Source of the DNA: Wickerhamiella versatilis
Lineage: Eukaryota
Assembly (NCBI GenBank): GCA_030867685.1
Contig: JAQOWU010000008.1
Location: 4,340,001-4,404,000, forward strand
Direction: 5' to 3'
DNA length: 64,000 nucleotides
The first letter of the stretch is position 1. Each line of letters opens with the position of its first letter. A program made the position numbers and the translations under genes. The notes under the pieces are model-generated. The model was not told the DNA's origin, did not search any database, and saw only the letters and a program-made list of their open reading frames with translations. Below, piece after piece: positions 26,412-53,711 of the stretch.

Positions 26412-27533
26412 ATGCACGCGAGCTATTCAATTTATAGTTTTGGACTTTTAGGACTAGCCCATGCGCCAGGAATTCTTTCAGAATCACAGGTGGCCCCAGC
26501 GGCGACGTCCCCCGCTGGAATGGAGCAAGTCTCCGCCTATGATAAGGTACTTCGACATAAAGATACTCAAATGAAGGCCACAGCGATCCCTAAAGTAGGA
26601 AATCCACAAACTGTGACCATTCAGGACCATGGCAAGATGAACGATGCCGTTAACAATTTACAGGGAGAGCAATATGCTGAGGAGATCGTATTAAATCGTG
26701 ACACAGAGTCCAGAACTCACAAAAAACATGGTAAAGGTAGACATTCTCATGAAAAAAGCGGAAAATACGGCGAATACGATGACATGGAAGGTCTATCAGG
26801 GCAAACCAGTGATCATGAAACGGAATCACAGGTGCATCAGCCAAAACTTAGTCGGTGTCTCGCAGTCTCAGCTATGATAGTGGTGAGCGAGGTGGGAGAC
26901 AAGACGTTTTTTATTTCTGCTCTTATGGCAATGAGAAGCTCACCATGGCTTGTGTTTAGTGCCAGCATAGCACCCCTGGCTATCATGCACACGTTATCAA
27001 CATTTCTCGGGTTGGTGCTGCCTAGCATTCTCTCTCCAAAAAAGACCTTACTTCTTGCAACAGTGCTATTCTTGGTATTTGGACTAAAAATGATGGTCGA
27101 GGCACTTAGAATGAAAGTCGGCGATTTGAGCAATGAGGAGATGGAGGAGGTTGAGCATGAGATAGAGATCCAGGACTCAAATAGAATAATGGAAAAAACA
27201 GAAAAACAGTCGAATGAGTCAAGCATGTCGGGTGATAGATTCAGATTCTCGTCTGTGGTCTCCCCAATGTGGATCCAAATCTTTGTGATGATATTTCTTG
27301 CTGAGTGGGGTGACAGGTCGCAGATAGCAACGATTGCCTTAGGTGCCAGCACACATATTCGAGATGTTCTTTTGGGTGGAATTGTAGGTCATGCAATATG
27401 CTCTACCCTTGCTGTGGTTGGTGGGTCGCTGCTTGCAACAAAACTATCACCTCGCACTATTACGTTCTGTGGGGCAACTTGTTTTTTGGCATTTTCAGTT
27501 CTTTACTTTCTAGACTGGAAAAAGGAATGTTAG
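26412..27533 (+). CDS. GDT1: GDT1/TMEM165 (UPF0016) Golgi Ca2+/Mn2+:H+ antiporter
   Basis: Both family motifs are present: SEVGDKTF and AEWGDRSQIAT. Confidence 0.92.
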   Translation: MHASYSIYSFGLLGLAHAPGILSESQVAPAATSPAGMEQVSAYDKVLRHKDTQMKATAIPKVGNPQTVTIQDHGKMNDAVNNLQGEQYAEEIVLNRDTESRTHKKHGKGRHSHEKSGKYGEYDDMEGLSGQTSDHETESQVHQPKLSRCLAVSAMIVVSEVGDKTFFISALMAMRSSPWLVFSASIAPLAIMHTLSTFLGLVLPSILSPKKTLLLATVLFLVFGLKMMVEALRMKVGDLSNEEMEEVEHEIEIQDSNRIMEKTEKQSNESSMSGDRFRFSSVVSPMWIQIFVMIFLAEWGDRSQIATIALGASTHIRDVLLGGIVGHAICSTLAVVGGSLLATKLSPRTITFCGATCFLAFSVLYFLDWKKEC

Positions 27534-28758: not shown

Positions 28759-29886
28759 TTAAAGACCACCACTTCCGATGACTCGGATGGAACTACCCGA
28801 ACCGTATTTAGCCTGAGCAATTCCTGCCTGCTTGTTGTCCAAATCGTAAACAACATAGGCTGAACGAAGGAATGTGTCTCCTAGGATAACCTGGTTCTCG
28901 GTTTGACTGGCAGGTGCGAGGCCAAACACCTTTGTGCCGCTTTCTTCAACAATGAGTTCAGAGGCAGGCACAGTGATTTTAGTGCCTGAGAAGTCAAATT
29001 CAACGTCAACGCCGTCGCTATCACCATGAATGATATACAAACCTTGGAAGAAGTCGTAGCTAGCTCCAAACTCCTTAGCAAGGCTTGAAACTAGAGAGTC
29101 GTCGAGATAAGTCAAGCTGGTACCACTGTCAAGGACGCCATTTGCAGACTGGCCATTGACTGAGAAATCAACGTTGAAAGACCGGTCACTTGTGAAAGGA
29201 ACCTTGCCCAACGAGCCCTCATAACGAGAGTCATCAACAGCACCAAGGAGGAAAACCCCAGTGTCGGAGTTAACATCATCAAGATAAAGAGAGTAAAGTG
29301 CCGAGGAAATTATGCTTTGCTTCTTAAGAGCATATGGCAAGTTGTCGTATGTGGACCCATCGGTAGTTGCCTCGGTAGACTTGAATCCGACGCCAAACAC
29401 AGTATCGTCCAGATTCTCATAATTATCAGTTACGGCGAACTGCAAGTCAAAGTCAATACCACCCCAAGATACTTTGTCAGTGTAATAATCGCCATTTGCA
29501 CCCGATCCATCTACATACATGATGCTGAAATCATCAGACACGTACTTGCTCGAAGAACTGCTGCTCGAGTCGTACTGATATTTAGCCTGAGAAACCTTTG
29601 AGCTATACACCCACAAGTCGGATGATCCGGTGTCAAGAGCGCTGGTGAAACTCTGGCCTGGCGAGCCCAAGTCGAAAGACACCAAGTACTGGAACACTTT
29701 ATTAGTTAGGGTTTCCGAAGCACCTCCGTTAGATGACTTCACAATAGCGTGACGGTGCAGTGGCGAACTAGGAGCAGTTGTGTTAGTACGATGGCGCTGG
29801 AAGCCTGCAGATAGATAGCCCTGGCCACTAGTAGGTGCACCTAATACATAGGCAGAAAGCAGTAGAAATGCTGAAGTTATCTTCAT
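28759..29886 (-). CDS. Secreted pepsin-like aspartic protease (Sap/yapsin-like, no GPI tail)
   Basis: Signal peptide, catalytic LDTGSSDLWV and LDSGTSLTY, and ILGDTFLRSAYVVYDLDN. Confidence 0.95.
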   Translation of the reverse strand: MKITSAFLLLSAYVLGAPTSGQGYLSAGFQRHRTNTTAPSSPLHRHAIVKSSNGGASETLTNKVFQYLVSFDLGSPGQSFTSALDTGSSDLWVYSSKVSQAKYQYDSSSSSSSKYVSDDFSIMYVDGSGANGDYYTDKVSWGGIDFDLQFAVTDNYENLDDTVFGVGFKSTEATTDGSTYDNLPYALKKQSIISSALYSLYLDDVNSDTGVFLLGAVDDSRYEGSLGKVPFTSDRSFNVDFSVNGQSANGVLDSGTSLTYLDDSLVSSLAKEFGASYDFFQGLYIIHGDSDGVDVEFDFSGTKITVPASELIVEESGTKVFGLAPASQTENQVILGDTFLRSAYVVYDLDNKQAGIAQAKYGSGSSIRVIGSGGL

Positions 29887-31377: not shown

Positions 31378-32544
31378 CTATGATGAGATCGTGTGAGATG
31401 GACTAGGACCAGATGGGGCAGAAACAAAAGGAGGATGTCCGGATGGTAGGACACCAGATAAAGGTAGAGCTGATAGGGGGCTACCAGAAGGTAGTAAGCC
31501 GGGGGCTCCACGCTTTTTGAGTTGTGCAGCTGTCACTGAACGAGAAGTGATGAAATCCGAAGGAATTGGGCCAGAGGGAATTGGATCGGAAGGGATTGGA
31601 CCAGAAGGAATAGGACCCGATGGAACAGGAATCGATAGAGGTTGTCCAGAAGCAGCACGCTTCTTGAATTTAGCCTCTGAAGTTGGACCGGAAGGAATTG
31701 GACCGGAAGGAATTGGACCGGAAGGAATTGGACCGGAAGGAATAGGACCGGATGGAATAGGACCCGAGGGAGGCGGACCAGGTAGTGGAGAGCCAGAAAC
31801 CTCACGCTTCTTGACTTCAGCAGCTGGGATTGAGCCAGAAGGAGGGGGACCCGAAGGGATGGGGCCAGGTGGTGGAGAGCCAGAAGCATCACGCTTCTTG
31901 AATTTAGCCTCTGAAGTTGGACCGGAAGGAATTGGACCGGAAGGAATTGGACCGGAAGGAATTGGACCGGAAGGAATTGGACCGGAAGGAATAGGACCGG
32001 ATGGAATAGGACCCGAGGGAGGCGGACCAGGTGGTGGAGAGCCAGAAGCATCACGCTTCTTGAATTTAGCCTCTGAAGTTGGACCAGAAGGAATTGAGCC
32101 AGAAGGAATGGGACCCGAGGGAGGCGGACCAGGTGGTGGAGAGCCAGAAACCTCACGCTTCTTGACTTCAGCAGCTGGGATTGAACCAGAAGGAGGGGGA
32201 CCCAAAGGGATGGGGCCAGAAGGAATTGAGCCAGAAGGAATGGGACCCGAAGGGATGGGACCAGGTGGTGGAGAGCCAGAAACCTCACGCTTCTTGACTT
32301 CAGCAGCTGGGATTGAACCAGAAGGAGGGGGACCCGAAGGGATGGGGCCAGAAGGAATGGGACCAGATGGAACAGGACCAAATAAAGGAGGGCCAGAAGT
32401 ATCTCGCTTGCTAAGTTCAGCAGCTGGGGCTAAACTAGATAAAGCAGCACCAGGTATAGAAGCGTATGAAGGCACAGGTCTACTGGGATCTGTAGCTGGA
32501 GCTGCGTATGTGAGACTGAGCAAATAAAGATATGAAAACAACAT
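31378..32544 (-). CDS. Secreted Pro/Ser/Gly-rich repeat protein with 8 Kex2 (KR) sites; Kex2-processed repeat protein precursor
   Basis: Signal peptide MLFSYLYLLSLTYA and (PSGPI)n blocks separated by AAEVKKR/EAKFKKR. TATA-like TATAAA lies just upstream on the minus strand. Confidence 0.85.
   Translation of the reverse strand: MLFSYLYLLSLTYAAPATDPSRPVPSYASIPGAALSSLAPAAELSKRDTSGPPLFGPVPSGPIPSGPIPSGPPPSGSIPAAEVKKREVSGSPPPGPIPSGPIPSGSIPSGPIPLGPPPSGSIPAAEVKKREVSGSPPPGPPPSGPIPSGSIPSGPTSEAKFKKRDASGSPPPGPPPSGPIPSGPIPSGPIPSGPIPSGPIPSGPIPSGPTSEAKFKKRDASGSPPPGPIPSGPPPSGSIPAAEVKKREVSGSPLPGPPPSGPIPSGPIPSGPIPSGPIPSGPIPSGPTSEAKFKKRAASGQPLSIPVPSGPIPSGPIPSDPIPSGPIPSDFITSRSVTAAQLKKRGAPGLLPSGSPLSALPLSGVLPSGHPPFVSAPSGPSPSHTISS
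31560..32395. repeat. Coding 15-bp minisatellite (GGACCGGAAGGAATT) nested in higher-order ~90-160 bp units
   Basis: Perfect 15-bp arrays at about 31685-31740 and 31919-31990, with repeated CACGCTTCTTGA spacers. Confidence 0.9.
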
Positions 32545-33277: not shown

Positions 33278-35128
33278 ATGGGTCGTGTAGGAAAATCGAA
33301 ACACACAGCTATAGCTTGTACTAGTTGCAGGAGACGCAAAATCAGATGTGATTCACAAAGACCGAAGTGCGAGAACTGTATTAGCTCCACCGAGATTTGT
33401 GAATACAGAGAAATTCCTCGTCAGTCTATACCAGCAACATCACTTTCTGCCGTGTATCAGCGCCTCAGTGCACTAGAAGAGAAAGTAAGCTTACTTTCAG
33501 AGCCCGCTAAGGAGCCTAGGTCCATGGTGAAACCTATATCTTCCTGGATGGACACAGAAAAGAAGCCTGCATTTATGGCTGAGGAACCAAATGAGAAGAA
33601 AAGTAAAGAGCTTTTGATCCCTTTTCGTGACATGCCTCCGTCAAATCCTACTTTCAATGATCGCTTAGCTGACTTTAAAGCACAAGTGAATGGAGAGAAA
33701 GAGTATAGTAACATGATGTACACTTCAGGCTTGTTCTTCATAATCCTAGGACCAACTGAAATTGAAAAAATTTCTATACGACTTTACGATTCGCATTTGA
33801 TGGAGTACCTGGAATACGTCTCTTATACCATCTGGCTCAAAACTCAATCGCTTCATGCACAACTAGTTCATCCGCTTTGGCAATCTCTACCACAGGGTAG
33901 CTTTTTAGATCAATGTAAGGAAGTTTTTGCAGAAAATTTTGCATTCTATCCCCTAATCACCCTGAAAGACATTGAGAAAGGTGTGTTTTCTGAAATTCCG
34001 GGACAACAGGAACAATGCCAGAATGCCATGAATGCCGCTATAATTATCATAGGATGCATCAAAATGAGAGAAAATAAAGAATTTGAGATGTTTCCAAAGT
34101 CTTTTCTTGATACTCAGGAAACTCTCGCCTATTACCATGCCATCAAGATTCTGAGCTTGATCAAGTTTTCGCCTCCCTCTTTTTGCTTATTGCGTATCTC
34201 AGCTTTTTTGTGGAGGCTGCTTTATGATAACACTGCGACTCCATCATTACAGTTATTGCTACGTTCCATTCTTGACATGGCTAGAGCTGTTGGCTTAAAT
34301 GAATTGGGGCGGTCTCCGCATTCTTGTTCGCCGCAACCACCAGATATAAAGCAGCGAATACAGACCTCATGTGTGTTGGTTAGTTTTCAACACTCTATCA
34401 GCATATCACTATCCTTAAAACCTTATGACTGGAAGCTGGACACACAGGCACTCTTGAATGGGTTAACCTGCCCTGAAGAAGTTGAAATATACAAACATGT
34501 GTTCAAGTTGCACCAAGTATATAGCAAGACTCATCATTTGCTTTTCTCACTTCCTATTCGCAGAGCTCCTATTCAAGAAATTCATCATCTTGTGGTGGAA
34601 TTAGGACGAGAGCTTGCTGAATGGGAGGAGAATGGACCGGAAGGGATGTGGAATCATGACAATTCTTCCAGTGAGATCAAATTTACATATTTTTGCCCAC
34701 AGTACGAGGTTCACTGTGAATACTATCATACTTTGATTGCAATTCATTCTGTATCAGCTTTCAACCCAGAGTGCTTTCCCGATCAGTCTCAGATGTCTTT
34801 GAACAAAGTGACTCAAGCCGCAAGACAACTACTTAATGTATGTTTAAGTGCTCAAAAAGTGAAGAGTGGTCTTACTTTACTAGAAAGCAGCGCTGTGACT
34901 GCGGCACTTTGTGTATTTCTGTATAAGCAAATATGCTTTCCTGGGGAACAATCTCTTTTTGCAGATATGGGATACATCCGTGACTTTATGAGTAAATTCT
35001 CAGATTTAAGCTTGTGGCCTGGAGAAGATTCTGAGATCCCTACAGTGGAAATTTGGAGAACTTTAGTTCAAATTATGAATCGTGTTTCAAATGCGGAGCA
35101 GGAGAGAGCGAGGCTTTCTGGTATTTAA
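33278..35128 (+). CDS. Zn(II)2Cys6 fungal transcription factor, paralog of 14437-16290
   Basis: ACTSCRRRKIRCDSQRPKCENCISSTEIC. Shares PTFNDRL, LIAIHS and LYKQ.C.P with the other TF. Confidence 0.93.
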   Translation: MGRVGKSKHTAIACTSCRRRKIRCDSQRPKCENCISSTEICEYREIPRQSIPATSLSAVYQRLSALEEKVSLLSEPAKEPRSMVKPISSWMDTEKKPAFMAEEPNEKKSKELLIPFRDMPPSNPTFNDRLADFKAQVNGEKEYSNMMYTSGLFFIILGPTEIEKISIRLYDSHLMEYLEYVSYTIWLKTQSLHAQLVHPLWQSLPQGSFLDQCKEVFAENFAFYPLITLKDIEKGVFSEIPGQQEQCQNAMNAAIIIIGCIKMRENKEFEMFPKSFLDTQETLAYYHAIKILSLIKFSPPSFCLLRISAFLWRLLYDNTATPSLQLLLRSILDMARAVGLNELGRSPHSCSPQPPDIKQRIQTSCVLVSFQHSISISLSLKPYDWKLDTQALLNGLTCPEEVEIYKHVFKLHQVYSKTHHLLFSLPIRRAPIQEIHHLVVELGRELAEWEENGPEGMWNHDNSSSEIKFTYFCPQYEVHCEYYHTLIAIHSVSAFNPECFPDQSQMSLNKVTQAARQLLNVCLSAQKVKSGLTLLESSAVTAALCVFLYKQICFPGEQSLFADMGYIRDFMSKFSDLSLWPGEDSEIPTVEIWRTLVQIMNRVSNAEQERARLSGI

Positions 35129-36309: not shown

Positions 36310-36975
36310 TTAGCCAGTGGCAAGCTTCTTTAGCTGGGTAATATCGCCATTGAAAATATCAGAGTCGCCACCTGCGGAATAAGAATCCGCATTTTGCCAA
36401 ATAGTCTCAAAAGGCCAGCCTCCGGGGGCGGCCTGAGGTGAGGATCCCCAGCTAGCAAGCATGAGGGGAGAATTCTTGCTGAATTTTGTACTATCTCCAG
36501 TACATTCCTTCCACCATGATGGAGAGGTGTACAAAATTGGGTAGCGACCTGTTTTGGAGTGATATGTATCGACAAAGTCGCTGATATAGTTGACGGTAAA
36601 GGAGGCGCTTCCTGGGCAGACACCCTCCAGATCTAGCATACCTGGAAGGGTTATTCCGTCATCACTCCATCCTCCACCATGAGCGAGAAAATACTCCGCC
36701 TCAGAGGCACCATTTCCATAACTTGCAAAGTGGTAACCTCCACGAATTAGGCCCGCCTCAGTAGCTCCCGTATACTGCTCACTGAATTCGGGGCTGATAT
36801 AGCTGGTACCCTCCGTTGCCTTAATGACAACGAATCGGGCACCATTTGAATAGGCAGATTTGAAATCTACATTGGGCTGGTAGCTAGAGATATCAAATCC
36901 TTGCACGGAGGCTGCGGAAGCAGCACCAATCATATATCCTAAGAAACCCAGACTGCCAATATTGTTCAACCTCAT
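36310..36975 (-). CDS. Secreted GH25 lysozyme (Chalaropsis-type N,O-diacetylmuramidase)
   Basis: Signal peptide, VQGFDISSYQ, IKATEGT, IRGGYHFA, GGGWSDDGITLPGMLDLE (catalytic D and DxE). Confidence 0.93.
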   Translation of the reverse strand: MRLNNIGSLGFLGYMIGAASAASVQGFDISSYQPNVDFKSAYSNGARFVVIKATEGTSYISPEFSEQYTGATEAGLIRGGYHFASYGNGASEAEYFLAHGGGWSDDGITLPGMLDLEGVCPGSASFTVNYISDFVDTYHSKTGRYPILYTSPSWWKECTGDSTKFSKNSPLMLASWGSSPQAAPGGWPFETIWQNADSYSAGGDSDIFNGDITQLKKLATG

Positions 36976-37203
36976 TTTTTATTGGGAATCTTCACAGAAT
37001 TTATTTTTTAGGCAATAATATATATATTAATATGGGCTAGGAGGGGGCAAGGAATATGAATTCGACCAACCAGATGCCTTGCTTGCATCGTACTTATGTG
37101 TAAGATGATCACCGAAATTGTCTTGCATGAGACCGCAGGTCCTTCGACATTGCTTTATATAAATAAACTAATAATTATACTTCCAGTTTGCACATTGCTG
37201 TAA

Positions 37204-38355
37204 ATGAGGTCATTTCCATTTCATCTTCTCCCGGTATTCAATCATTTAATGTGCACACCATTTTTTGGTGCCTCGAGCCTAACTATGAATGGTGCTATTG
37301 CCAGTCCACAATTAGAAGGGACTAGCCAAAAGTCAAGCATGTGTGATCTTGAAGATGTTGAATTACTTGCAGCAACACATGTTATATATTCGTACAGCGG
37401 CGCGGAACCTCCTCTAGAACTACTCAACCTGACAGAACAGGGGAAAGTCGGTGGCATTATGCTTTTCGGTGGAAACGTTAACGATAATCTCTCAATTAAT
37501 ATTGAGAAAATTCAGCAAGCATATAAGATGAGTCCTGCATACTTTGGCAAACCTCTTTTGATTTCAACTGATCAAGAAGGAGGCTATGTGAAAAGGATAC
37601 CTGGTGGGCCATATGAATCTGCAAAGGAGGCAGGACAACAAAGAAACCCAATTTGTGCCGCGTTACAGGACGGAAAGGATGCAGGACAAACGCTCAAGAG
37701 TCAAGGAGTAAATGTGAATTTGGCACCAGTGCTAGGTGTTTATCGATCGGAAAGTAATTTTTTGAATCAGTTTAACAGGTCATACAGCAATGATACAACC
37801 ATTGTCTCAGCCTGTGGTTCTTCGTTTATTCAGTCGGAACAAAAAGTAGGCATTGCGAGTACTGCAAAGCATTTCCCTGGGCTAGGCTTAGCAGGAAGTG
37901 ATACCACTGATGGGGTACCAGTGACAATAAACTCGACTCTTAAAGAGCTCAGAGAGATTGATATTGTACCGTTTCGTAATGCCATATCAGATGGCGTCGA
38001 CCTAGTTATGGTCTCATGGGCATTCTATGATGCCTTGGATGGCAGCTTACCAGCAGGATTGAGCAAGAAGTGGGTAAAAGGGGAACTTAGAAATGAAATT
38101 GGTTTTGAGGGTGTAACAATTACAGATGCAATTGAAGCAGGTGCCCTCATATCTTTCGGAGATGATAATGAAAGAGCTATCCTCGCAACCCAGGCCGGCA
38201 TGGATCTAATTTCTGCAGGACGTCGCAATGTATCGCAAGGTCTATCGATTGTGAAGGCACTTAGTGCTAAATTGGCTGACGGTTCATTGCCACTTCAAGA
38301 ATTCAGAGAAGCTACTAACCGGATTCAAAAACTCCAAATGAAACTTGGAGCCTAG
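37204..38355 (+). CDS. Single-domain GH3 beta-N-acetylglucosaminidase-like (NagZ-related)
   Basis: LLISTDQEGG.V.R, NLAPV, AKHFPGLG, ITDAIE. No C-terminal GH3 domain. Confidence 0.85.
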   Translation: MRSFPFHLLPVFNHLMCTPFFGASSLTMNGAIASPQLEGTSQKSSMCDLEDVELLAATHVIYSYSGAEPPLELLNLTEQGKVGGIMLFGGNVNDNLSINIEKIQQAYKMSPAYFGKPLLISTDQEGGYVKRIPGGPYESAKEAGQQRNPICAALQDGKDAGQTLKSQGVNVNLAPVLGVYRSESNFLNQFNRSYSNDTTIVSACGSSFIQSEQKVGIASTAKHFPGLGLAGSDTTDGVPVTINSTLKELREIDIVPFRNAISDGVDLVMVSWAFYDALDGSLPAGLSKKWVKGELRNEIGFEGVTITDAIEAGALISFGDDNERAILATQAGMDLISAGRRNVSQGLSIVKALSAKLADGSLPLQEFREATNRIQKLQMKLGA

Positions 38356-38969
38356 AATGCTGTATATTCAAGAGATGAAAATCAATGTTACGAAATTACA
38401 AGTTGAATTATATCTTAAATACTATATACTTAGGCAGCAAGAGCGATAAGCTATAGACTGATTTTAGTGCATTACAGAACATTTTTGATTCAGTAATAAT
38501 ATTAGCCAGCAAACGGTTACTTAAATGTTTTGACCAGAGACAAAGCGTGATACTTTGAGTGCACACACAAGCGGAGTATCTAAAGTTATCCCACCACAGT
38601 CTATAGCAAAATTCAGAAATAAAACAGTTAGAATTTCAGCTCAGACAGAAAATTCAGTGTCACTTCGCTTTCGAGATATAACGCCACATCGAATCCCCGT
38701 CCTCGGTGCCCGAATCCATAACTGTGACTATGCCATCGCATACGTAACGCAGTTTTCCGATATAAAGTTGGAGGAGCCCCATACCTCTCTTTTTAGCTAT
38801 AATATATAATAGTAAGAATCAAAGTTTAATAATTAATGATACTTCACGCTACCCAATCTCTGAGTTTTGTGAGCTAGTTAACCATCGGAAAATGTCGTCG
38901 GAACTTGATTGTCGATTACTCATATTTTGTGGGAGACTACTGTTGACTCAATCTTTCTTGTCTATTGAC

Positions 38970-39545
38970 ATGGCAATTGAGCCTAAGCATGTTGTATTGA
39001 CTGATGGATCAGATGCAACGGTATTCACTGTTGCATCTGCAGAGGAAGTCACTGCTGATATTGCAAGAAAAATGTGCGAAATGTACAATTATGAGGTCTC
39101 AAGGGGTCAAACGTTTCCCCTCGATGAAATACTAGACATAAGTAGTTTTTGTGACTACTGGATACCGCCTTGTTGTGGAATTATGGTATCTGGCTATCAT
39201 CACAAGTTGCCGTCTGATGGAAGCACTGTGCTAGCAACATACTTTATCAAAAAAAACTATCCCTACGGTAGGTGCTCCCATATCGGCAATGCTGCCATGA
39301 TGGTAGATCGTAATGCGCGGAGAAAGGGTATTGGAAAGATTTTAGGTTCTTGCCTGCTTCAAGATGCAAAAGCGTTAAGATATACCTACATAATGCTGAA
39401 TCTGGTGTTTATCACTAACGTTGCTTCACAGAAAGTCTGGGAAGCCATCGGATTCGAAAAAATTGGGCGCATACCTCACGCAGTTAAAGCAGAAGGATAT
39501 CCTCAGCCAGTCGATGCACTAATTTATGGAATGACACTTTCGTAA
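38970..39545 (+). CDS. GNAT N-acetyltransferase, Mpr1/Spt10-like
   Basis: YFIKKNYPYGRCSHIGNA, ARRKGIGK, NLVFITNVAS..WE.IGF..IGRIP. Likely start 38970, with an in-frame ATG also at 38892. Confidence 0.85.
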   Translation: MAIEPKHVVLTDGSDATVFTVASAEEVTADIARKMCEMYNYEVSRGQTFPLDEILDISSFCDYWIPPCCGIMVSGYHHKLPSDGSTVLATYFIKKNYPYGRCSHIGNAAMMVDRNARRKGIGKILGSCLLQDAKALRYTYIMLNLVFITNVASQKVWEAIGFEKIGRIPHAVKAEGYPQPVDALIYGMTLS

Positions 39546-40174: not shown

Positions 40175-41185
40175 TTAATTAGACCAAGAATAAGATCCCA
40201 AAATAATTACCACAATACAGCAGCCGGAAAATACAGTCACGACTCCATAAGCATAGGCTCTCCACAAAGGCAAGCTATACATCTCAACAATAACCATAGG
40301 CACGGTGCTTAAGCAAGCACAAAATCCACGTGTTAAGCTATACAGTACTTGTCTCTGCAGAGTTGAGGACGTAACAGAGCTCCGAAGAATTCTAAACATA
40401 CATGCTAGAGCAACACTGAGCATGTTAGCAGCGAAGGTGCCCAATTTGTAGTATGGTTTGTTAAATCTCGTCAGATAGAAGCGCAACCATGTTCCGAACG
40501 GGGAGAACGATGCAATCAAAGGCAAATTCCTTTCAGAGCCCATTACGACCGCTAGCACTACCACAGTCACCCACCCTGCCACTCCAAGCGTAGCCGTGGC
40601 ACGAAGATACCACAATTCTAGGATAGGATCTCGAATGAAATTAACAGGAAGATAAAGTTCACAAAAGGAGGCCAAATGAATTCCCATTTGAAACCCTGAA
40701 AAACTCACCGCTATTTCAATGATTAGATCTGCCATAAACAATGGTACTCCATATCCATACGTTGGCCAGTTACTCTTTGGTGACGTGACATTAAAGAACT
40801 CAACAATAAGGTAAGTACTTAAGCTTGACAACGTTCCACTAAGACCCATCCCATGGAGTATAGACAGTTTAGGACCAAATACCTCCCGGAGACCCATGAG
40901 CAAGGAGCCGGCAAAGTTAACCCACTTAGTGGATCCATTTTCAAAGCCAGTCAGGTTCTCTAGACCAGTTCGTGCGACAGAGCCGCATAAAGAGAAGAAA
41001 GCCAGAGCCAGAGCTAACTCAAGGGTCTCTAGTTTTGAAACAGAGCGTGTATCGGCAATCGGGATTAAGTCAGATCCTACGAAATAAACGATGAGTAAGC
41101 TATATATGTCGGACGACAGTTCGTAGTACCCATACCTACTATTCGAGGACATATCAGCTGAGCAGATATCGTACTTAAAGGCCAT
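40175..41185 (-). CDS. Fluoride exporter FEX-like (two CrcB/Fluc domains), diverged
   Basis: G..AR.GL..., NFAGSLLMG, PFGTWLRFYL...GTFAAN, RGFCACLSTV. Confidence 0.8.
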   Translation of the reverse strand: MAFKYDICSADMSSNSRYGYYELSSDIYSLLIVYFVGSDLIPIADTRSVSKLETLELALALAFFSLCGSVARTGLENLTGFENGSTKWVNFAGSLLMGLREVFGPKLSILHGMGLSGTLSSLSTYLIVEFFNVTSPKSNWPTYGYGVPLFMADLIIEIAVSFSGFQMGIHLASFCELYLPVNFIRDPILELWYLRATATLGVAGWVTVVVLAVVMGSERNLPLIASFSPFGTWLRFYLTRFNKPYYKLGTFAANMLSVALACMFRILRSSVTSSTLQRQVLYSLTRGFCACLSTVPMVIVEMYSLPLWRAYAYGVVTVFSGCCIVVIILGSYSWSN

Positions 41186-41219: not shown

Positions 41220-42509
41220 CTATTGCAATGTGCGTGCGGTCTGAAAAAAAATGCGTGCTGCCGATCCCATCTCTATTAGCTGTGATCTTAAATTACTATT
41301 TCCAGAGCCATTTTCAAATTCGCTAGAATCAGGATGCTGTCCTTCATTGCTGTTCACGTACTGATTGTATCGATCAGCACGTGACTTATCGAGCTTAGTG
41401 GGGTTCATGTCCCCCGCATACCATCCATCATTAAACTTCAAAAATTCATTCATGAGAAAAATAGTATTGTTTGCTTGAAAATGTATTGACTGGTCCAGTT
41501 TTGAATCGCGACCACCGAAAATTTCAAGATAATCAGCGAAACTAGTGACAAGTAGCTGGTAGAACTTGGTATAGTCGGAATAAAAACGCCGGCTTGTGTT
41601 TGCTGGACGTGTGTCAAATATGGCTGTCGAGCTGTTTGTAGCTTGAGACATTATATCATGGCTTTTTTGGTAGTAGGATTCATCTTTAGTGTACTTGTAC
41701 AGCAACGTACACAGGGATACTGGGGTCCCTTGATTGTAAGTCCACTTTCGCAAATTTCCACCACCCCCAGAGGGAGGTCCATCATAGAATAGCCCATCCG
41801 AAGGATCGAGAGTATTGCTCCAGAGATAATCGAGACATTTCTTTGCAAAGTCTGTATAGGTATCATTTCTCAAATGATTCGCTAGGCGTGCAGCGGCTAA
41901 GCCTGCCTCAGAGGTAGTGACCGTGTTTGCACCTGGATGATTTCTGTGCCAAACGACGCCTCCAGTGGTGTCATTCCAACCTGTCATGAGAAAGTCAACA
42001 CAACGTTTTCCGTATTCGAGGTAAGTATTGTTACCACTGACCTCATATGCTGTGAGATATGCCTCTGCAACCTGGCTATTGTCATCGTAGTACATATCAG
42101 TATCTCCATTAAAGTATTCCGTGGCGGTGTATCCCTTCTGAACAGGGTTCCAGTAGGTGTCAAGCGTATCAAGCGCGGTGGCCATCTTGGGAAGCCATCC
42201 CGAGTCAGCACTGGCTGCATCCACGAGAGCCTGAGCGGCAACCACCGTACTCCAAAGCTCGTACTTCCCTCCACTCATGCCACCGGTACTGTTGTTCATA
42301 TCAATAAAAGCATTCTGGCCTCCACTGTAGAAATGGGACAGCATATTTCCTGCGACAGTGAATCCTGTTTGACGACTGCCAGAAACATCTATCACTTGCT
42401 CAGCACGGTTTTGGAAATGGTGATGGTGCTGCACAGGCTGAGATCGAGTGAAATCTATAGAGCATAGAAGGACACATAGTACCCGCAAAATTCCGTGATG
42501 TTGTCCCAT
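41220..42509 (-). CDS. Secreted GH76 alpha-1,6-mannanase-like protein
   Basis: Signal peptide, catalytic YYDDN, GGVVW, DGLFYDG, WTYNQG. Confidence 0.88.
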   Translation of the reverse strand: MGQHHGILRVLCVLLCSIDFTRSQPVQHHHHFQNRAEQVIDVSGSRQTGFTVAGNMLSHFYSGGQNAFIDMNNSTGGMSGGKYELWSTVVAAQALVDAASADSGWLPKMATALDTLDTYWNPVQKGYTATEYFNGDTDMYYDDNSQVAEAYLTAYEVSGNNTYLEYGKRCVDFLMTGWNDTTGGVVWHRNHPGANTVTTSEAGLAAARLANHLRNDTYTDFAKKCLDYLWSNTLDPSDGLFYDGPPSGGGGNLRKWTYNQGTPVSLCTLLYKYTKDESYYQKSHDIMSQATNSSTAIFDTRPANTSRRFYSDYTKFYQLLVTSFADYLEIFGGRDSKLDQSIHFQANNTIFLMNEFLKFNDGWYAGDMNPTKLDKSRADRYNQYVNSNEGQHPDSSEFENGSGNSNLRSQLIEMGSAARIFFQTARTLQ

Positions 42510-48304: not shown

Positions 48305-49759
48305 CTAGTTCCATATAAGCAATTTCAAGGGTGTCGGTTCATAACCACTGCATGGGTTATTGAGCTGGGGGCAATTTGAGATCAGCACCACTAGGTCCAT
48401 TTTGGCTTTCATCTCTACATATTTTCCTGGGCCTGATACACCATCAGCAAAGTCAAGCACACCATCTGGGGAGACAGGGACATTCATGAAAAAGTTAATA
48501 TTATGAGCGATATCGCGTTTGGTGATCCCAAACTCTGGATGCAGAGCTGTTGCAAGCATCCAGTTGTCACGGCATGAATGCATATGTCGCCTTTCCAGAT
48601 CATATCGGACAGTGTTGCTCTCACTGGCACATGCTCCACCAAGTGTATCATGCCTACCACATGTGTCGGCTGTAATCTCTAACATTTCATTACCCAGATT
48701 TGAAAGAAGTTTGGTGCCCGTACTCAAATACAAATTTTTCTGTTCCCGAATTGTATCCATGCAGCTATAACGCTCTGAGGTATCATCTGCGCGAAAGAAA
48801 AGCGTATCCGCGGCTTCATTGCCTTCAACGTCTACAATTCTTAAGGTTTGTCCTTTCCTAACCTTTCCAATGTAATGATCGCCGGCATCAATGACGTAGT
48901 GAGTGATAGCATTTTCCTCACGTTTGATGCTCTCCAAAAGACGAGGGTTTTCAAATTTCATATTAGCGAACCTGTCCACCACATCGAAGCTGCTTTTGTC
49001 ACTAGAGTCATGTAATGATAGTGAGCTCAAATTCCGTAGTCCTAAGTGATAGAGACGATTATTCTCAAATCCTCTCTTGTTTTCAGGACAGTGTTTAAGG
49101 CACAAGTCGGAAGATAGCATGGGAGGTGCTTCACTGAGGTTGATATCAACACCTCTCTTGATATAATTTAGGCTCGAATCCATAGGATGTGGACAGGTGT
49201 GGATAATTACAAGTGTGTCCATCTCGAAACGAAGTGTAACACTACTTCCAGGCTTACAATTTCCAGGAACGTAAGCCAGCTCCCCGCGATCGTCACATTC
49301 CACTTTACTGAAAATATTCAGGTTTGCAGGCATATCTCGTCGTCCGAGGCCATATTTGGCCATCTCAATAAGAAAACTTTCGTATCCGGTTTGAGTGCGA
49401 TCGTTATGAGCTGACTGGAAGCCAACTTCTTGCCAAAATTTACGCAGCATGAGATCTCTAGTAAGATTCCCACCCACGCAATCGTGCCAACCCACATTGT
49501 CTGCGACAATTGAAGCAAAAATTCTTCCCATATCAGAATAGATACAATTTCCACGTGACAACTTGAATGTATGCTGACACTTTAACGTATCGGGTAGATT
49601 CAGACGCTCCAACTTATTTTCAGGGTTGAAGAATAACATACCAACATTCGTATCTTCATATTGGGTAGACAATGTCATTGTGGTACCTTGACGTAGTCGT
49701 AATGACCAGTGCTGGCCACCGGGTAAATGTGTAGTGTAGCTGAATTCTTTTTGTTCCAT
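48305..49759 (-). CDS. cgdAB: Fused carboxyguanidine deiminase CgdA-CgdB (two urea-carboxylase-associated DUF1989 proteins in one ORF)
   Basis: N-half LPGGQHWS...ERLNLPDTLKCQHT...YSDMGR...WHD...CPHP. C-half GQTLRIVDVEGNEAADTLF...DTCGRHDTLGGAC...NINFFMNVPV...SNCPQLNNPC. A Ser-rich linker separates them. Confidence 0.9.
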   Translation of the reverse strand: MEQKEFSYTTHLPGGQHWSLRLRQGTTMTLSTQYEDTNVGMLFFNPENKLERLNLPDTLKCQHTFKLSRGNCIYSDMGRIFASIVADNVGWHDCVGGNLTRDLMLRKFWQEVGFQSAHNDRTQTGYESFLIEMAKYGLGRRDMPANLNIFSKVECDDRGELAYVPGNCKPGSSVTLRFEMDTLVIIHTCPHPMDSSLNYIKRGVDINLSEAPPMLSSDLCLKHCPENKRGFENNRLYHLGLRNLSSLSLHDSSDKSSFDVVDRFANMKFENPRLLESIKREENAITHYVIDAGDHYIGKVRKGQTLRIVDVEGNEAADTLFFRADDTSERYSCMDTIREQKNLYLSTGTKLLSNLGNEMLEITADTCGRHDTLGGACASESNTVRYDLERRHMHSCRDNWMLATALHPEFGITKRDIAHNINFFMNVPVSPDGVLDFADGVSGPGKYVEMKAKMDLVVLISNCPQLNNPCSGYEPTPLKLLIWN

Positions 49760-50111
49760 AATGCGACTGTAAAAGTTGTGAAGACTGTTACCATAAGATA
49801 TATCAATATATACTCCGCGGACTTAGTATCAAAATCTCGCTACAAATTACCCTGCAACTCGGAGCGACGGTTACCAGGATCGGCAAACGGACGCCGCAGC
49901 TAGTTGCATAACTTTGTCATGGTAACGAGTACTGCATATGAAGAAATGGCAATTTAGAGCGAATAAGCCACTTTACTTTATTTTAAAATATGAGATAGAT
50001 ACTAGTGGAAAGTTATAGCGATGATATGTGTTTAATCACGGTGCTTAGAATCTCAATCAGATCTACAAATAACCGCTATACCCTTCAATTTAATTCAAAC
50101 AACCGCTTCAC
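49760..50111. promoter_or_regulatory. Bidirectional promoter between cgdAB and the carboxylase
   Basis: 352 bp between divergent ATGs, with a GC-rich core carrying four CGG triplets and three GTTACCA copies. Confidence 0.6.
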
Positions 50112-53100
50112 ATGTTCGATAAGGTATTGATAGCGAACCGTGGTGCAATAGTAACGCGAATTCTTCGCACCTTGAAACGATTAAAGATAAAAGCGGTTGT
50201 TGTATATGCTGAAAGCGACCGCGAAGCGCCATATGTACATGATGCGGATGAATCCTACTCTCTCGGTGATGGAACAGCTAGCCAAACATACCTTGACATG
50301 GAAAAAATTCTCATTATCGCTCGCAAAAGTGGAGTGGAGGCTATACACCCTGGATATGGGTTTCTATCGGAGAATGCCGACTTTATTAACGCCTGTGATA
50401 AATCAAAAATTGTCTTTCTTGGTCCTAAGGCACATCATGTTCAGGAATTCGGCTACAAGCATCGGGCGAGGCAATGTGCTGAACGAGCAGCTGTAGCACT
50501 AGTGCCTGGTTCTGGACTTCTTGATGATGTGGAAAAAGCTCAGAAAGTAGCTCAAGAAATAGGTTTTCCCGTGATACTCAAATCAACTGCTGGTGGGGGA
50601 GGTATTGGTATGCAGGTGTGTGAAGACTCCTCGGCTTTGAGTCGATCTTTTGAGTCTGTACAAACTCTCAGTAAGCGTAATTTTGGGAACGGAGATGTCT
50701 ATATAGAGGCTTTTATACCTAAAGCCCGTCACCTGGAAGTCCAGATATTTGGTGATGGTACAGGCAAAGTAGTAGCTCTTGGAGAGCGGGATTGTTCATC
50801 GCAGCGCCGCAATCAAAAAGTTGTTGAAGAATGTCCAGCACCCGCACTGCCCGATCGTGTAAAACAGGAAATTCATGACACAGCTAGGCGCCTCGGGGAA
50901 TCGGTTAAGTACCAAAGCGCAGGCACTGTAGAGTTTATCTATGACGTACCTCGTCAAAAGTTTTACTTTCTTGAGGTCAATACGCGACTTCAAGTAGAGC
51001 ATGGGGTCACAGAACTAGTTTGGAATGTTGATCTTGTCGAGTGGATGGTTCGTCTAGGGGCAGGTGAGCTGCCTCAGTTAGACTCTCTAAGGAGTAACCT
51101 AGCACCTTCTGGCCATGCTATTCAGGCAAGAATATATTCTGAAGATCCCCTACATAACTTTCGTCCTAGTTCAGGACTTCTCACAGAAGTGAGATTTCCC
51201 GAGTTCCATGGACTACGAATTGATCACGCACTGAAGGCAGGAATTGAAGTCTCGGCGCTTTATGACCCCATGATTGCGAAGGTGATATCTTTCAGTTCTA
51301 ATCGCAACAATGCTTGTGACCTGCTAAGGGAATCACTTGAAAATACTCAGATTTATGGAGTCATCACGAATAAGGAGTGGCTAGTAGCTCTACTTACTAG
51401 TAGAAGCTTTTTATCCGGAAATATTTATACTCAATGGTTAGAGTCATTTCAGTGGTTACCAGATGCAATCGAAATACTAGCATCAGGTACCCTCACGACT
51501 ATTCAAGATTATCCTGGCCGCCAAGGATATTGGAATGTCGGTGTTCCTCCCTCTGGGCCCTTCGATGACTGGTCCTTCCGACTTGGAAATCGCCTTCTAG
51601 AGAATCCAGAGAATGCTGCAGGATTTGAGATAACGCTAAATGGACCCAAAATACAGTTTTTCGTCGCAACCCAGATAGTAATTGCTGGCTCATCATACTC
51701 AGCGACACTCAATGGAAACCCTATCCAGCCGTGGGTAGTTATTGATGTGAATGTAAGGGATATACTCTCTATGGGCTCTGTATGCAATGGTATGAGAAGC
51801 TACCTATTGTTCCGCGGGGGTGTCAAGTGCCCTCTGTATTTAGGCTCACGTAGCACGTTCACCCTGGGACAATTTGGTGGCCATGTTGGGCGCTCACTGA
51901 AGACAGGAGACCAACTTGGCCTCAACAAGCTTCCTCCGGTTCGAACTCGTATTCTTAATCCTTCCCTATTGCCAAGATATTCTAATGGCGATGGACTCTG
52001 GGAAATATCAGTATGCTATGGACCTCATGGCGCCCCAGATTTTTTCACAGAACAGGACATCAATACTCTATTCAGTCACCAATGGAAAGTTCATTATAAT
52101 TCAAGTCGTACTGGTGTTAGACTTATGGGACCGCATCCTGAGTGGGCCCGTAGTGATGGTGGAGAAGCAGGTCTGCACCCGTCTAATATACATGACAATG
52201 CATATGCATTTGGTACAATTGACTTTACTGGAGACATGCCTATCATCCTCGGTCCTGATGGACCCTCTTTAGGAGGTTTTGTCTGTCCTGCCACAGTAAT
52301 CCACAGTGATCGCTGGAAAATAGGGCAGTTGGCACCCGATGACAGAGTTAAATTCGTTCCTGTCTCAATGAATCAAGCGCAAGCCATTGAGAGACAGTAC
52401 ACTCATGCTCTAGAAAACTTATCCCCACTATGCCTGCCTGCTATTATACCATCTAAAGGCTCACCTATTCTACGTGAAGTAGAAGCAAGTGAAGCCGGTG
52501 AATGTATAACATATCGTTGTGCTGGTGACGATTTTCTACTTATCGAGTTTGGACCCATAATTCTCGACATATCTCTTCGCTTTAGGGTGCATACCTGGAT
52601 GCTTTGGGTAGAGTCGCATAAATTACCGGGAATAAAAGAATTGACGCCAGGAATACGCTCTTTGCAGATACACTACGATCCCAGCAGATTGTCGATAGAA
52701 GCACTTTTGATTCATTTAAGGCAAGCTGAGAATGAGCTGCGCAGTATTAATGATTTAGAAGTTGAGACTCGTGAGATATTCCTCCCAATTTCTTGGGATG
52801 ATCCTGACTGCCAAAAGGCAATCGATCATTACCAGCAGAGTGTCAGACCAGGAGCACCATGGTGTCCAAGCAATTTAGAATTCATCCGTCGAATCAATGG
52901 ACTTAAAGATATCAGTCAAATAAGAGATATTATTTTTGATGCTAGCTATCTTGTCATGGGGCTGGGTGATGTATATCTTGGTGCGCCAGTGGCCACTCCA
53001 TTAAATCCAACACAACGGCTCGTAACCACAAAGTATAACCCAGCTCGTACATGGACGGCAGAGAATTCAGTTGGTATAGGTGGCGCTTACCTTTGTGTTT

Positions 53101-53711
53101 ATGGGATGGAAGGTCCTGGTGGATACCAATTTGTCGGGCGGACATTGCAAATGTGGAATCGTTACGAGAGTACCGAATATTTCAGTAACCCCTGGTTATT
53201 GAAGTTTTTCGACCAGTTGCGATTCTATGAAGTTAGTCATGACGAATTGATCAGAATACGTCGAGACTTTCCACATGGTCGTTTCAAGCTGAATGTTCGT
53301 CAGAATACTTTCCGATTAGCAGACTACGTCGAAGATATGAAGAAGATTCAAGAGGATGTCGATGAGTTTCGCGTAAAGCGCGAAAAAGCTTTTCAGGAGG
53401 AAATTGCCAGATGGCATGCGAATGGTCAATTCACGTTTGAAGAAGACCCGAAGGAGTTGTACAGTAATGATAACCCAGTTGTTGAAGATGGCGAGCTGCA
53501 GGTTGAAAGTCCAGTCTCGGGGAACATATGGAAAGTGATGGTGAATGTTGGCGATTTCGTACAGAAAGACGACACACTTGTACTTATAGAGTCGATGAAA
53601 ATGGAACTCGCGGTATGTGCCCAGTGTAATGGAGCTATTGAGAGAATTCTGATCAAGGAAGGGGTTATGACTACCAACGGTCAGCCTTTGATCGTTATGA
53701 AAGAAATATGA
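50112..53711 (+). CDS. uca: Stand-alone bacterial-type urea/guanidine carboxylase (biotin carboxylase + carboxyltransferase + BCCP; no allophanate hydrolase domain)
   Basis: MFDKVLIANRGAI, FLEVNTRLQVEHGVTE, GLHPSNIHDNAYAFGTIDFTGDMP, TKYNPARTWT and biotinylation site ESMKME. 1199 aa versus about 1830 aa for yeast Dur1,2. Confidence 0.95.
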   Translation: MFDKVLIANRGAIVTRILRTLKRLKIKAVVVYAESDREAPYVHDADESYSLGDGTASQTYLDMEKILIIARKSGVEAIHPGYGFLSENADFINACDKSKIVFLGPKAHHVQEFGYKHRARQCAERAAVALVPGSGLLDDVEKAQKVAQEIGFPVILKSTAGGGGIGMQVCEDSSALSRSFESVQTLSKRNFGNGDVYIEAFIPKARHLEVQIFGDGTGKVVALGERDCSSQRRNQKVVEECPAPALPDRVKQEIHDTARRLGESVKYQSAGTVEFIYDVPRQKFYFLEVNTRLQVEHGVTELVWNVDLVEWMVRLGAGELPQLDSLRSNLAPSGHAIQARIYSEDPLHNFRPSSGLLTEVRFPEFHGLRIDHALKAGIEVSALYDPMIAKVISFSSNRNNACDLLRESLENTQIYGVITNKEWLVALLTSRSFLSGNIYTQWLESFQWLPDAIEILASGTLTTIQDYPGRQGYWNVGVPPSGPFDDWSFRLGNRLLENPENAAGFEITLNGPKIQFFVATQIVIAGSSYSATLNGNPIQPWVVIDVNVRDILSMGSVCNGMRSYLLFRGGVKCPLYLGSRSTFTLGQFGGHVGRSLKTGDQLGLNKLPPVRTRILNPSLLPRYSNGDGLWEISVCYGPHGAPDFFTEQDINTLFSHQWKVHYNSSRTGVRLMGPHPEWARSDGGEAGLHPSNIHDNAYAFGTIDFTGDMPIILGPDGPSLGGFVCPATVIHSDRWKIGQLAPDDRVKFVPVSMNQAQAIERQYTHALENLSPLCLPAIIPSKGSPILREVEASEAGECITYRCAGDDFLLIEFGPIILDISLRFRVHTWMLWVESHKLPGIKELTPGIRSLQIHYDPSRLSIEALLIHLRQAENELRSINDLEVETREIFLPISWDDPDCQKAIDHYQQSVRPGAPWCPSNLEFIRRINGLKDISQIRDIIFDASYLVMGLGDVYLGAPVATPLNPTQRLVTTKYNPARTWTAENSVGIGGAYLCVYGMEGPGGYQFVGRTLQMWNRYESTEYFSNPWLLKFFDQLRFYEVSHDELIRIRRDFPHGRFKLNVRQNTFRLADYVEDMKKIQEDVDEFRVKREKAFQEEIARWHANGQFTFEEDPKELYSNDNPVVEDGELQVESPVSGNIWKVMVNVGDFVQKDDTLVLIESMKMELAVCAQCNGAIERILIKEGVMTTNGQPLIVMKEI

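Follow-up and report, generated by a model that had tools for sequence, protein, structure and literature searches.

The stretch of the Wickerhamiella versatilis genome analysed here, positions 4,340,001 to 4,404,000 of contig JAQOWU010000008.1 (64,000 nucleotides, hereafter the window, whose numbering is used throughout), carries a muramidase gene of glycoside hydrolase family 25 (GH25) beside a glycosidase gene of family 3 (GH3). Both open reading frames (ORFs) begin with ATG in the standard code, one at 36310-36975 on the minus strand (221 amino acids, aa) and one at 37204-38355 on the plus strand (383 aa), and according to the ORF calls and the sequence itself their start codons face apart across the 228 bp between them. 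The head-to-head GH25-GH3 arrangement with this gap had been described in an original prediction made from the letters alone, and it is borne out by the ORF listing and by Pfam. The parts of the locus are:

36310..36975, minus strand: GH25 (Chalaropsis-type) muramidase gene, 221 aa, intronless, identified by Pfam and by alignment to solved structures
36976..37203, no strand: intergenic region of 228 bp, presumed to act as a shared bidirectional promoter
37204..38355, plus strand: GH3 gene for a NagZ-like single-domain glycosidase of a His-less "[N/D]-T-D" subfamily, 383 aa from Met1

The GH25 protein matches Pfam PF01183 (Glyco_hydro_25) at 4.4e-43 with 148.1 bits against a cut-off of 27, covering profile positions 2-179 of 180. 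It aligns over the full mature length with the solved fungal muramidases 6zmv (7e-72), 2x8r (9e-68) and 6zm8 (4e-66), and more weakly with Streptomyces cellosyl 1jfx (1.2e-42). The catalytic DxE motif, defined for fungal GH25 muramidases in PMC7954357, is found as D115-L-E117 (nt 36625-36633), aligned with the DxE of 6zmv and 2x8r. Residues 1-20 are hydrophobic (score 1.61) and end in AASA, and the mature chains of the solved fungal enzymes begin at residues 21-24 of the yeast protein, which fits a cleaved signal peptide; the first 20-23 residues look like a putative one. In general, the protein is built like Trichobolus zukalii TzMur (6zmv), Acremonium alcalophilum AaMur (6zm8) and the Aspergillus fumigatus enzyme (2x8r), each with a single GH25 domain of ~200 residues after a signal peptide (PMC7954357), which in the yeast protein is putative. 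However, it differs from these characterised muramidases in lacking a 4-5 residue insertion just after the DxE, in its budding yeast host, and in that its activity is predicted. Among the best 120 matches, the closest named relatives come from Talaromyces, lichen-forming fungi, and Xylariales (62-71% identity), and no named Saccharomycotina protein is found among the best 120 matches of either the GH25 or the GH3 search. The expectation that a Chalaropsis-type GH25 is typical of filamentous fungi and out of place in a budding yeast thus agrees with the matches obtained.

Both genes are expressed, as seen in published values in transcripts per million (TPM) by Brito et al. 2026 (PMC13376923), which cover three replicates each in yeast nitrogen base (YNB) and YPD medium, the assignment of columns to media being ambiguous. 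GH25 reaches 158.9, 165.3 and 274.1 TPM in one set and 40.7, 46.5 and 125.4 in the other, and GH3 reaches 26.6, 25.5 and 46.1 and 5.8, 5.5 and 17.3, respectively. Across the six samples, the two genes vary together with r = 0.995 on log2 TPM (r = 0.989 after removing condition means), and the GH25:GH3 ratio stays within 6.0-8.5 in every sample; for the other five neighbours, r ranges from -0.21 to 0.87 overall. Co-expression, on which the original prediction had staked the pairing, is thereby seen in published data, as a shared divergent promoter would lead one to expect, although with six samples we regard it as no more than suggestive.

In addition, four public RNA runs (unstranded, from another strain of the same species label, 95-99% identity) were aligned, and both genes are transcribed in them, with a depth in the poly-A run X24 of ~25-60 for GH25 and ~4-11 for GH3. 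Loose read ends at ~36992 resemble a template-switch oligo and place the GH25 transcript start 17 nt upstream of the ATG. On the GH3 side, the bin 37171-37337 holds an excess of plus-oriented reads and a TATA-like element lies at 37156-37166, ~40 bp before the ATG, which together fit transcription of GH3 from just ahead of the first ATG. There is thin coverage across 37004-37170 too, and coverage of GH3 is too thin to give a transcript start. At least 15 variants between the strains fall in the two genes, the aligned stretch having 46 others beyond those listed, and 13 of the 15 are synonymous (8/10 in GH25 and 5/5 in GH3).

A NagZ-like GH3 with an altered catalytic motif

The GH3 protein matches the N-terminal domain PF00933 at 5.8e-56 with 190.7 bits against a cut-off of 27. 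Its closest solved structures are all GH3 beta-N-acetylglucosaminidases, including Paenibacillus 6k5j (1.2e-38) and Bacillus subtilis YbbD/NagZ (5.5e-36), and beta-glucosidase structures are reached only from 1e-10. An AlphaFold model from a 16-sequence alignment has a mean predicted local distance difference test (pLDDT) score of 81.9, with residues 1-49 disordered, and all Foldseek matches listed for it (ranks to 50) are GH3 N-acetylglucosaminidases, the best with TM scores of 0.75-0.79, query-normalised. The catalytic loop (residues 221-240) has the lowest pLDDT within the folded domain, ~60. The best named relatives among the 120 best matches belong to Penicillium and Aspergillus, with 50-58% identity.

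The signature of NagZ enzymes, K-H-(F/I)-P-G-(H/L)-G-x4-D-(S/T)-H, was given by Mayer et al. 2006, as quoted in PMC6415606. The corresponding stretch in the yeast protein reads K222-HFPGLG-LAGS-D233-T-T235-D236 (nt 37867-37911), so that the first part of the signature is present as K222-H-F-P-G-L-G228, while the D-(S/T)-H dyad is broken; in the alignment to YbbD (D232/H234), the NagZ His falls on T235. According to PMC6572805, an Asp-His dyad is used by all NagZ enzymes known. The predicted nucleophile, D308 (nt 38125-38127), lies in GVTITDA and aligns with the Asp of IVTDA in YbbD, an enzyme with D318N mutants named in the titles of its structure entries, and DQEGG, R192-S-Y and K222-H223 are likewise kept. 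Against the NCBIfam NagZ equivalog NF003740, the yeast protein scores 128.4 bits, under the cut-off of 207, and a Streptomyces member of the same subfamily scores 126.1. The label of NagZ-type GH3 given in the original prediction therefore stands for fold, KHFPG(L)G motif, and nucleophile, and fails for the Asp-His dyad and for the equivalog score (128 versus 207 bits); the caveat attached to it, KHFPGLG...DTTD without a D-S-H dyad, was correct, the motif being residues 222-236 with the His missing.

The altered loop is not confined to the yeast. A motif census was made on 281 sequences (the window protein, its 120 best database matches, and 160 bacterial loci), of which 267 were parsed by pattern. 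Among these, 221 carry N-T-D, 44 D-T-D, and two T-T-D, namely the window protein and its own database copy; His is present in 0/267, and the Thr-Asp pair is invariant in 267/267. The 14 unparsed sequences lacked a nearby Pro required by the pattern, and three of them (L045, L061 and L071) visibly have NTD. Furthermore, DQEGG, RS[YF] and KH[FYW]PG are kept in 278-281 of the 281 sequences and the [TS]D[AS] nucleophile motif in 269. As the missing His is common to the whole subfamily, it is not a lesion of the window gene, and the invariant Thr-Asp suggests that another catalytic residue took over, not that the site decayed. D236, the invariant Asp after the Thr, would be the likely carboxylate acid/base in place of the His. 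Judged from its sequence, then, the GH3 is a member of a distinct, uncharacterised subfamily that is NagZ-like by fold and nucleophile and not a canonical NagZ. Literature searches for a His-less GH3 subfamily turned up only canonical GH3 enzymes, and the string KHFPGLG was not found.

The canonical NagZ/YbbD enzymes (B. subtilis 3bmx/4gyk, Paenibacillus 6k5j, and Mycobacterium tuberculosis LpqI 6gfv) share with the subfamily the fold, KHFPG(L)G, DQEGG, the Arg, and the nucleophile Asp. They differ in having the dyad where the subfamily has an invariant Thr-Asp, and in being cytoplasmic where the subfamily appears to be exported. Known members remove N-acetylglucosamine (GlcNAc) from muropeptides in which it is linked to N-acetylmuramic acid (GlcNAc-MurNAc), and the titles of solved NagZ entries record bound GlcNAc-MurNAc. 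Some NagZ-type enzymes reportedly act as phosphorylases. For LpqI, a GH3 enzyme of the NagZ type, release of GlcNAc from muropeptides is described in PMC6572805.

It could be argued that the yeast GH3 is no hydrolase of the NagZ kind at all, either because catalysis was lost in favour of a carbohydrate-binding or regulatory role, or because the chemistry or substrate changed once the acid/base His was gone. The absence of His from all 267 parsed sequences, the score below the NCBIfam cut-off, the further departure of the window protein to T-T-D, and the low pLDDT of the catalytic loop would all suit such a change. Yet the retention of the DQEGG, RS[YF] and KH[FYW]PG motifs and of the nucleophile Asp, the invariant Thr-Asp, the exclusively synonymous strain variants listed for GH3 (5/5), and the bacterial genomes that keep a His-less member beside several canonical D-S-H paralogues argue against it, and we consider a loss or change of this sort improbable.

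For the GH3 to act on muramidase products it would have to be exported. From Met1, its N-terminus reads MRSFPFHLLPVFNHLMCTPFFGASS, with a hydropathy score of 1.53, compared with a median of 2.31 for the hydrophobic N-termini of 101 fungal GH3 homologues. The protein collection holds an alternative gene model (P0001) that starts at Met28 (nt 37285), giving 356 aa without the hydrophobic N-terminus and widening the start-codon gap to 309 bp. The GH3 model of a distant yeast relative, like that of the window, has a hydrophobic extension upstream. In bacteria, the GH25 proteins carry Sec-like signals and the linked GH3 proteins twin-arginine signals, e.g., ..SRRGALLAG..; a strict RR pattern is present in 44 of 79 bacterial GH3 N-termini from the genome loci, and among the remaining 35 several carry RR variants or lipobox-like cysteines. 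Since the bacterial and filamentous-fungal members are clearly exported, secretion is favoured for the yeast GH3 as well, and it is more likely than not a secreted protein.

The bacterial tandem and the descent of the genes in fungi

Scans with an alignment of the His-less subfamily yielded 80 metagenome loci, 20 of them with both flanks, and 80 loci from named genomes, 71 of them with at least 1.5 kb on both sides. Of the metagenome loci, 79 lie on bacterial contigs with 63-75% GC; the remaining one is a 1-kb contig at 55% GC. The genome loci, with 41-50% identity to the yeast GH3, belong to Streptomyces, Amycolatopsis, Micromonospora, Nocardia, Actinoallomurus, Pseudonocardiaceae, and others, together with a few Chloroflexia/Thermomicrobiales. 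Three actinomycete genomes each encode several canonical D-S-H GH3 paralogues (27-33% identity) and one His-less member (46-50%).

Using tblastn with the yeast GH25, a GH25 gene was found directly upstream of the subfamily GH3 in 17 of the 80 genome loci and in one of the 80 metagenome loci. These GH25 proteins are 40-52% identical to that of the yeast, both genes lie on the same strand in 18/18 pairs, and the distance from the GH25 stop to the presumed GH3 start is 29-208 bp (16 pairs measured). The tandem is limited to certain lineages, namely a Streptomyces clade of 12 and a clade composed of Actinoallomurus, one metagenome-assembled genome, one metagenome contig, and one further Streptomyces, and the genes around the pair differ among five loci. 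Like the actinomycete genes, the yeast genes are immediate neighbours, separated by 228 bp. Where GH25 is absent, the 117 ORFs scanned as nearest neighbours are a mixture, with MurJ and an ABC-2 permease three times each and a penicillin amidase twice, and no second neighbour family recurs above ~3 occurrences among the ORFs scanned. Because the neighbours are otherwise this heterogeneous, GH25 stands as the one recurrent partner of the His-less GH3.

Two further observations concern these bacterial loci. In three related uncultured actinomycete genomes (L083, L089 and L101, ~8100-9800), murJ, encoding the lipid II flippase, lies directly upstream of the His-less GH3, which is another link to the cell wall. 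In one Streptomyces genome (L102:5828-7942), a 704-aa GH84-like beta-N-acetylglucosaminidase (PF07555 plus a GH20b domain) is encoded just upstream of GH25-GH3; it was considered as part of a conserved cassette and rejected, as homologues were found only near two unlinked GH3 loci (L084 and L110).

The descent of both genes was followed in trees. The GH3 tree (99 rows, quick IQ-TREE search, LG+G4, SH-aLRT support) was made from the window protein, its yeast relative, 29 named and 12 unnamed of the 120 matches, the 18 linked loci, every second of the 63 unlinked ones, and six canonical outgroup sequences. The 93 subfamily rows form a clade with 100% support against the six canonical paralogues, and within it the 43 fungal rows, including the window protein, are united in one clade (100) that branches among actinomycete lineages. 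The window protein and its relative are sisters (100); their placement among the fungi is poorly supported, with a weak grouping (83) with the basidiomycete Meira. As a separate observation, fungal-type GH3 copies occur among the ascomycetes of this tree in a Mucoromycota record (Bifiguratus, P0044), in Meira (P0101), and in a record labelled as the tree Carpinus fangiana (P0120), which suggests fungus-to-fungus transfer or assembly contamination for these copies.

The GH25 tree comprises 91 rows, i.e., the window protein, the relative, 33 named and 10 unnamed matches, the 18 linked loci, and 28 loci from a class sample, with L191 (a duplicate of L102) and L200 omitted. It comes from a careful search with a bootstrap short of full convergence; an earlier quick tree was discarded because a constrained tree had the higher likelihood. 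Here, the 45 fungal rows form one clade (100/100) within a 70-row clade (86/93) that holds both clades of linked bacterial copies, and the yeast pair falls within 40 fungal rows grouped at 95/96. A topology that unites all other fungi in one clade is compatible with the data by the approximately unbiased (AU) test (p = 0.35). The linked bacterial copies fall in the same two clades in the GH25 and GH3 trees, as expected if each pair was inherited as a unit.

Judging from these trees, there appears to have been one entry of each gene into fungi, out of actinomycete stock, and it is plausible that the two were co-acquired in one event. Whether the yeast copies came by vertical descent or by way of Pezizomycotina, the trees (AU p = 0.35) are compatible with either route. 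An actinobacterial ancestor of fungal GH25 was already inferred by Metcalf et al. 2014 (PMC4241558), and the GH25 tree obtained here shows the same affinity. These authors also described an adjacent glycoside hydrolase with actinobacterial relatives in Aspergillus oryzae and proposed that it was co-transferred with GH25. The idea that this "GH2" neighbour was a mislabelled GH3 was rejected on size, its self-score of 1316 bits giving an estimate of ~640 aa compared with ~360 aa; "GH3" and "glucosaminidase" have 0 occurrences in the main text of PMC4241558.

In the distant yeast relative, the GH3 (P0002), the GH25 (P0122), and the GDT1 protein (P0242) are 68%, 78% and 55% identical to those of the window, and all three records give the same longest contig of 40,977 bases. 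The relative thus probably keeps the three genes on one 41-kb contig, and as GDT1 lies ~9 kb from the pair in the window, the neighbourhood seems to be conserved in a quite distant relative. The pairing, whose conservation the original prediction had made a test of its case, is therefore probably linked in this yeast and recurs as a same-strand tandem in 17/80 Actinomycetota genome loci. The comparison with Pezizomycotina that it had also called for gave a divided answer: the genes are of the filamentous type, the pair is unlinked in all four filamentous species in which this could be judged (see below), and the deeper source is Actinomycetota.

Proposed role of the pair and its genomic setting

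Taking these lines together, we hold with moderate confidence that the pair is a co-expressed, probably secreted peptidoglycan-degrading unit of actinobacterial ancestry that acts on bacteria outside the yeast cell. GH25 enzymes cut the MurNAc-beta-1,4-GlcNAc bond, and the muropeptides released carry GlcNAc at their non-reducing end. In the mechanism proposed here, the secreted GH25 would, from what is known of the family, act as the endo-muramidase releasing such muropeptides, and the GH3 would then trim the terminal GlcNAc as an exo-glycosidase, possibly with D236 as carboxylate acid/base, the His being replaced by Thr-Asp. Both genes are transcribed outward from the one 228-bp region, and their levels move together. 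A two-gene actinobacterial cassette may have been the source from which each gene passed once into fungi, the yeast holding fungal-type copies that have probably been linked since before the split from its relative.

The role of such a unit would be competition with bacteria in bacteria-rich fermentations and not the use of GlcNAc as food. The original prediction had left room for a bacteria-feeding module, and this part is weakened: the term "glucosamine-6-phosphate", part of the names of GlcNAc-6-phosphate deacetylase and glucosamine-6-phosphate deaminase, occurs 0 times in the available part of the published annotation tables of W. versatilis, an annotation-based result. With neither enzyme annotated there, feeding on GlcNAc looks less likely, and antagonism would be the likelier of the two. 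A comparable use is described for the basidiomycete yeast Moesziomyces bullatus, which secretes a GH25 lysozyme in microbial antagonism (PMC7870139, PMC12626018), although it belongs to another phylum and a GH3 partner is not mentioned for its GH25 in the available parts of these sources. As a speculation beyond the window, the xenologue list of PMC13376923 also includes two D-aminopeptidases and a D-amino-acid dehydrogenase ("HGT Bacteria") and a D-amino-acid oxidase ("HGT Pezizomycotina"), enzymes that could act on the stem peptides of peptidoglycan.

Alternatively, the pair might serve the yeast's own wall or life cycle, in remodelling, autolysis, or chitin trimming, with no attack on bacteria. 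Both genes are expressed in bacteria-free pure culture (GH25 at 41-274 TPM), fungal walls in general contain GlcNAc polymers, and a wall-related GH76 gene (41220-42509) and an aspartyl protease gene (28759-29886) lie nearby. However, those GH25 enzymes that have been characterised act as muramidases, and fungal walls do not contain MurNAc (family knowledge; PMC7954357), other budding yeasts do without the genes, none being named in the best 120 matches of either search, and the bacterial counterparts are exported enzymes of lytic type. A role in the yeast's own wall is accordingly hard to credit, and we hold it to be about as improbable as the loss of GH3 catalysis considered above.

Several observations weigh against a secreted antibacterial unit. 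The expression data come from pure cultures, and no response to bacteria is shown in them. The GH3 lacks the His that defines NagZ catalysis, the glycosidase activity of the whole subfamily is a prediction, and the T-T-D of the window protein is shared with its own database copy alone, the remaining 265 of 267 being N-T-D or D-T-D. Its N-terminal score lies at the 5th percentile of the 101 fungal homologues, as the earlier caveat of a weak GH3 signal peptide had anticipated, and below the 1.61 of its own GH25; if the Met28 start is right, the GH3 has no signal and stays within the cell, out of reach of extracellular muramidase products. The adjacency in the yeast relative is deduced from equal longest-contig figures only. 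Judged by contigs and locus tags in the match tables, GH25 and GH3 are unlinked in 4/4 Pezizomycotina species found in both lists of the best 120 matches, namely Chaenotheca gracillima (M4579_003547 versus _004932), Pseudogymnoascus VKM F-4513 (V494_03264 versus _05321), and Rhizodiscina lignyota and Pleurostoma richardsiae (both on different contigs or with distant locus tags). In bacteria, the tandem is always same-strand, GH25 then GH3, where the yeast pair is divergent. Finally, in an even sample of the class, 66 of 199 genomes have a GH25 match (68 of 201 with G026 and G034 included), and among the 29 best actinomycete GH25 loci examined from it, L200 being left out, a GH3 adjoins the GH25 in one, a Streptomyces genome already known to be paired.

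A further point against the unit arises from the published annotation of this yeast. Brito et al. studied the xenologues of Wickerhamiella and Starmerella yeasts and named a lysozyme-family gene of Pezizomycotina origin in W. versatilis. Their Supplementary Data 6 lists genes JCM_5958_gene_v001_00094 to 00100 in the same order as the window; the table has no sequences, and the match was made by gene order:

00094: mug191-type (GH76)
00095: GNAT
00096: PTHR30480 hydrolase (the GH3), "HGT Pezizomycotina"
00097: LYSOZYME, "HGT Pezizomycotina"
00098: unannotated, "HGT Pezizomycotina"
00099: aspartic protease
00100: GDT1

The Pezizomycotina origin label of both genes is thus already published. In the available parts of this source, the lysozyme is treated alone and no mention was found of the pairing, the missing GH3 His, the actinobacterial tandem, or the co-expression. 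Genes 00096-00098 are three consecutive "HGT Pezizomycotina" genes, their numbers 96-98 of the scaffold place them near a chromosome end, and the retention of xenologues in chromosome-end regions is a theme of the same paper. In such a xenologue-rich region, two foreign genes are more likely to end up side by side by chance than on average across the genome; for two particular genes in a yeast genome, a rough estimate of chance adjacency would be ~1 in a few thousand.

It could therefore be speculated that the adjacency has no functional meaning, two foreign genes having landed, jointly or one by one, in a chromosome end that collects them, with the GH3 acting on chito-oligosaccharides or another beta-glycoside. 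Besides the setting just described and the four Pezizomycotina in which the genes are apart, this would accord with the absence of GH25 beside GH3 in 63/80 bacterial genome loci and with the chitin-directed enzymes included among characterised GH3 N-acetylglucosaminidases (PMC6415606). On the other hand, the GH25 partner recurs at 18 bacterial loci, which belong to two separate clades and have different flanking genes, other neighbours of the His-less GH3 recur far less, the expression ratio is nearly constant over the six samples, and linkage has probably persisted in a relative with a native GDT1 of only 55% identity. A meaningless adjacency is for these reasons unlikely in our view, if less so than either the loss of GH3 catalysis or a role in the yeast's own wall.

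The neighbours of the pair are ordinary yeast genes. Those closest to it, and GDT1, are:

26412-27533: GDT1, ~9 kb from the GH25/GH3 pair
28759-29886: aspartyl protease
33278-35128: Zn2Cys6 factor (Pfam/ORF scan)
38892-39545, plus strand: GNAT acetyltransferase (Pfam)
40175-41185: CrcB/FEX-type fluoride channel
41220-42509: GH76

For GDT1, the named yeasts matched are distant, with 40-47% identity, and a protein-atlas search with the Zn2Cys6 factor placed it no more narrowly than in Ascomycota. The CrcB gene is not visible in the available table rows 00094-00100 of PMC13376923. The third published transfer gene, 00098, may be the Zn2Cys6 gene or a 388-aa ORF at 31378-32544 on the minus strand. 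This ORF has a signal-like N-terminus and ~8 Pro-rich repeats (SGPIPSGP...) between KR/KKR dibasic sites, gave no Pfam match, and is overlapped by an ORF on the opposite strand; from its sequence it looks like a Kex2-processed secreted repeat protein. The GNAT gene, whose product presumably resembles yeast Mpr1-type acetyltransferases, is very highly expressed, and template-switch-like loose ends mark 38911-38922, downstream of the first ATG, as its transcript start, so that the true start is probably a later Met (MAIEPKH..., ~nt 38970). Most RNA reads of the other strain (103/140 in X24) insert an A after 39543, two bases short of the GNAT stop, which would alter the last residue or the stop. 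Further away, a divergent pair with a bacterial-style layout at 48305-53711 encodes a two-DUF1989 protein and a biotin-dependent, urea-carboxylase-like protein of 1199 aa that lacks an amidase domain. The stretch 2438-27533 is rich in accessory-type genes, including four MFS transporters, a second Zn2Cys6 factor, and an old-yellow-enzyme, a density that fits a xenologue-rich chromosome-end region.

A bolder form of the favoured reading can be put forward tentatively, and we think it rather doubtful as a whole. GH25 and the His-less GH3 would be an old mobile lytic cassette of Actinomycetota that entered fungi as a unit, the GH3 representing a new catalytic type and not a NagZ-like enzyme, namely an obligate extracellular hydrolase with an Asp acid/base dedicated to finishing muramidase products, and the pair would have stayed linked and co-regulated in the yeast lineage.

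The transfer label of both genes is already published; what matters most here is the His-less GH3 subfamily and its cross-kingdom linkage to GH25. Actinomycetes, some Chloroflexota, and many fungi carry this subfamily, a large and uncharacterised GH3 branch without the catalytic His thought to be universal in the N-acetylglucosaminidases of this family, and the recurrent muramidase neighbour gives a concrete substrate hypothesis for it. The same two genes linked in bacteria and in a yeast are unusually direct comparative evidence for a functional couple, and with this linkage in both kingdoms, the joint passage of a small lytic cassette from bacteria to fungi can be put to the test. As fungal GH25 muramidases already serve as feed enzymes (PMC7954357), a natural partner enzyme for them could be of practical interest. 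For the yeast itself, the pair suggests one way in which it may hold its own against bacteria in soy-sauce-type and pickle-type fermentations.

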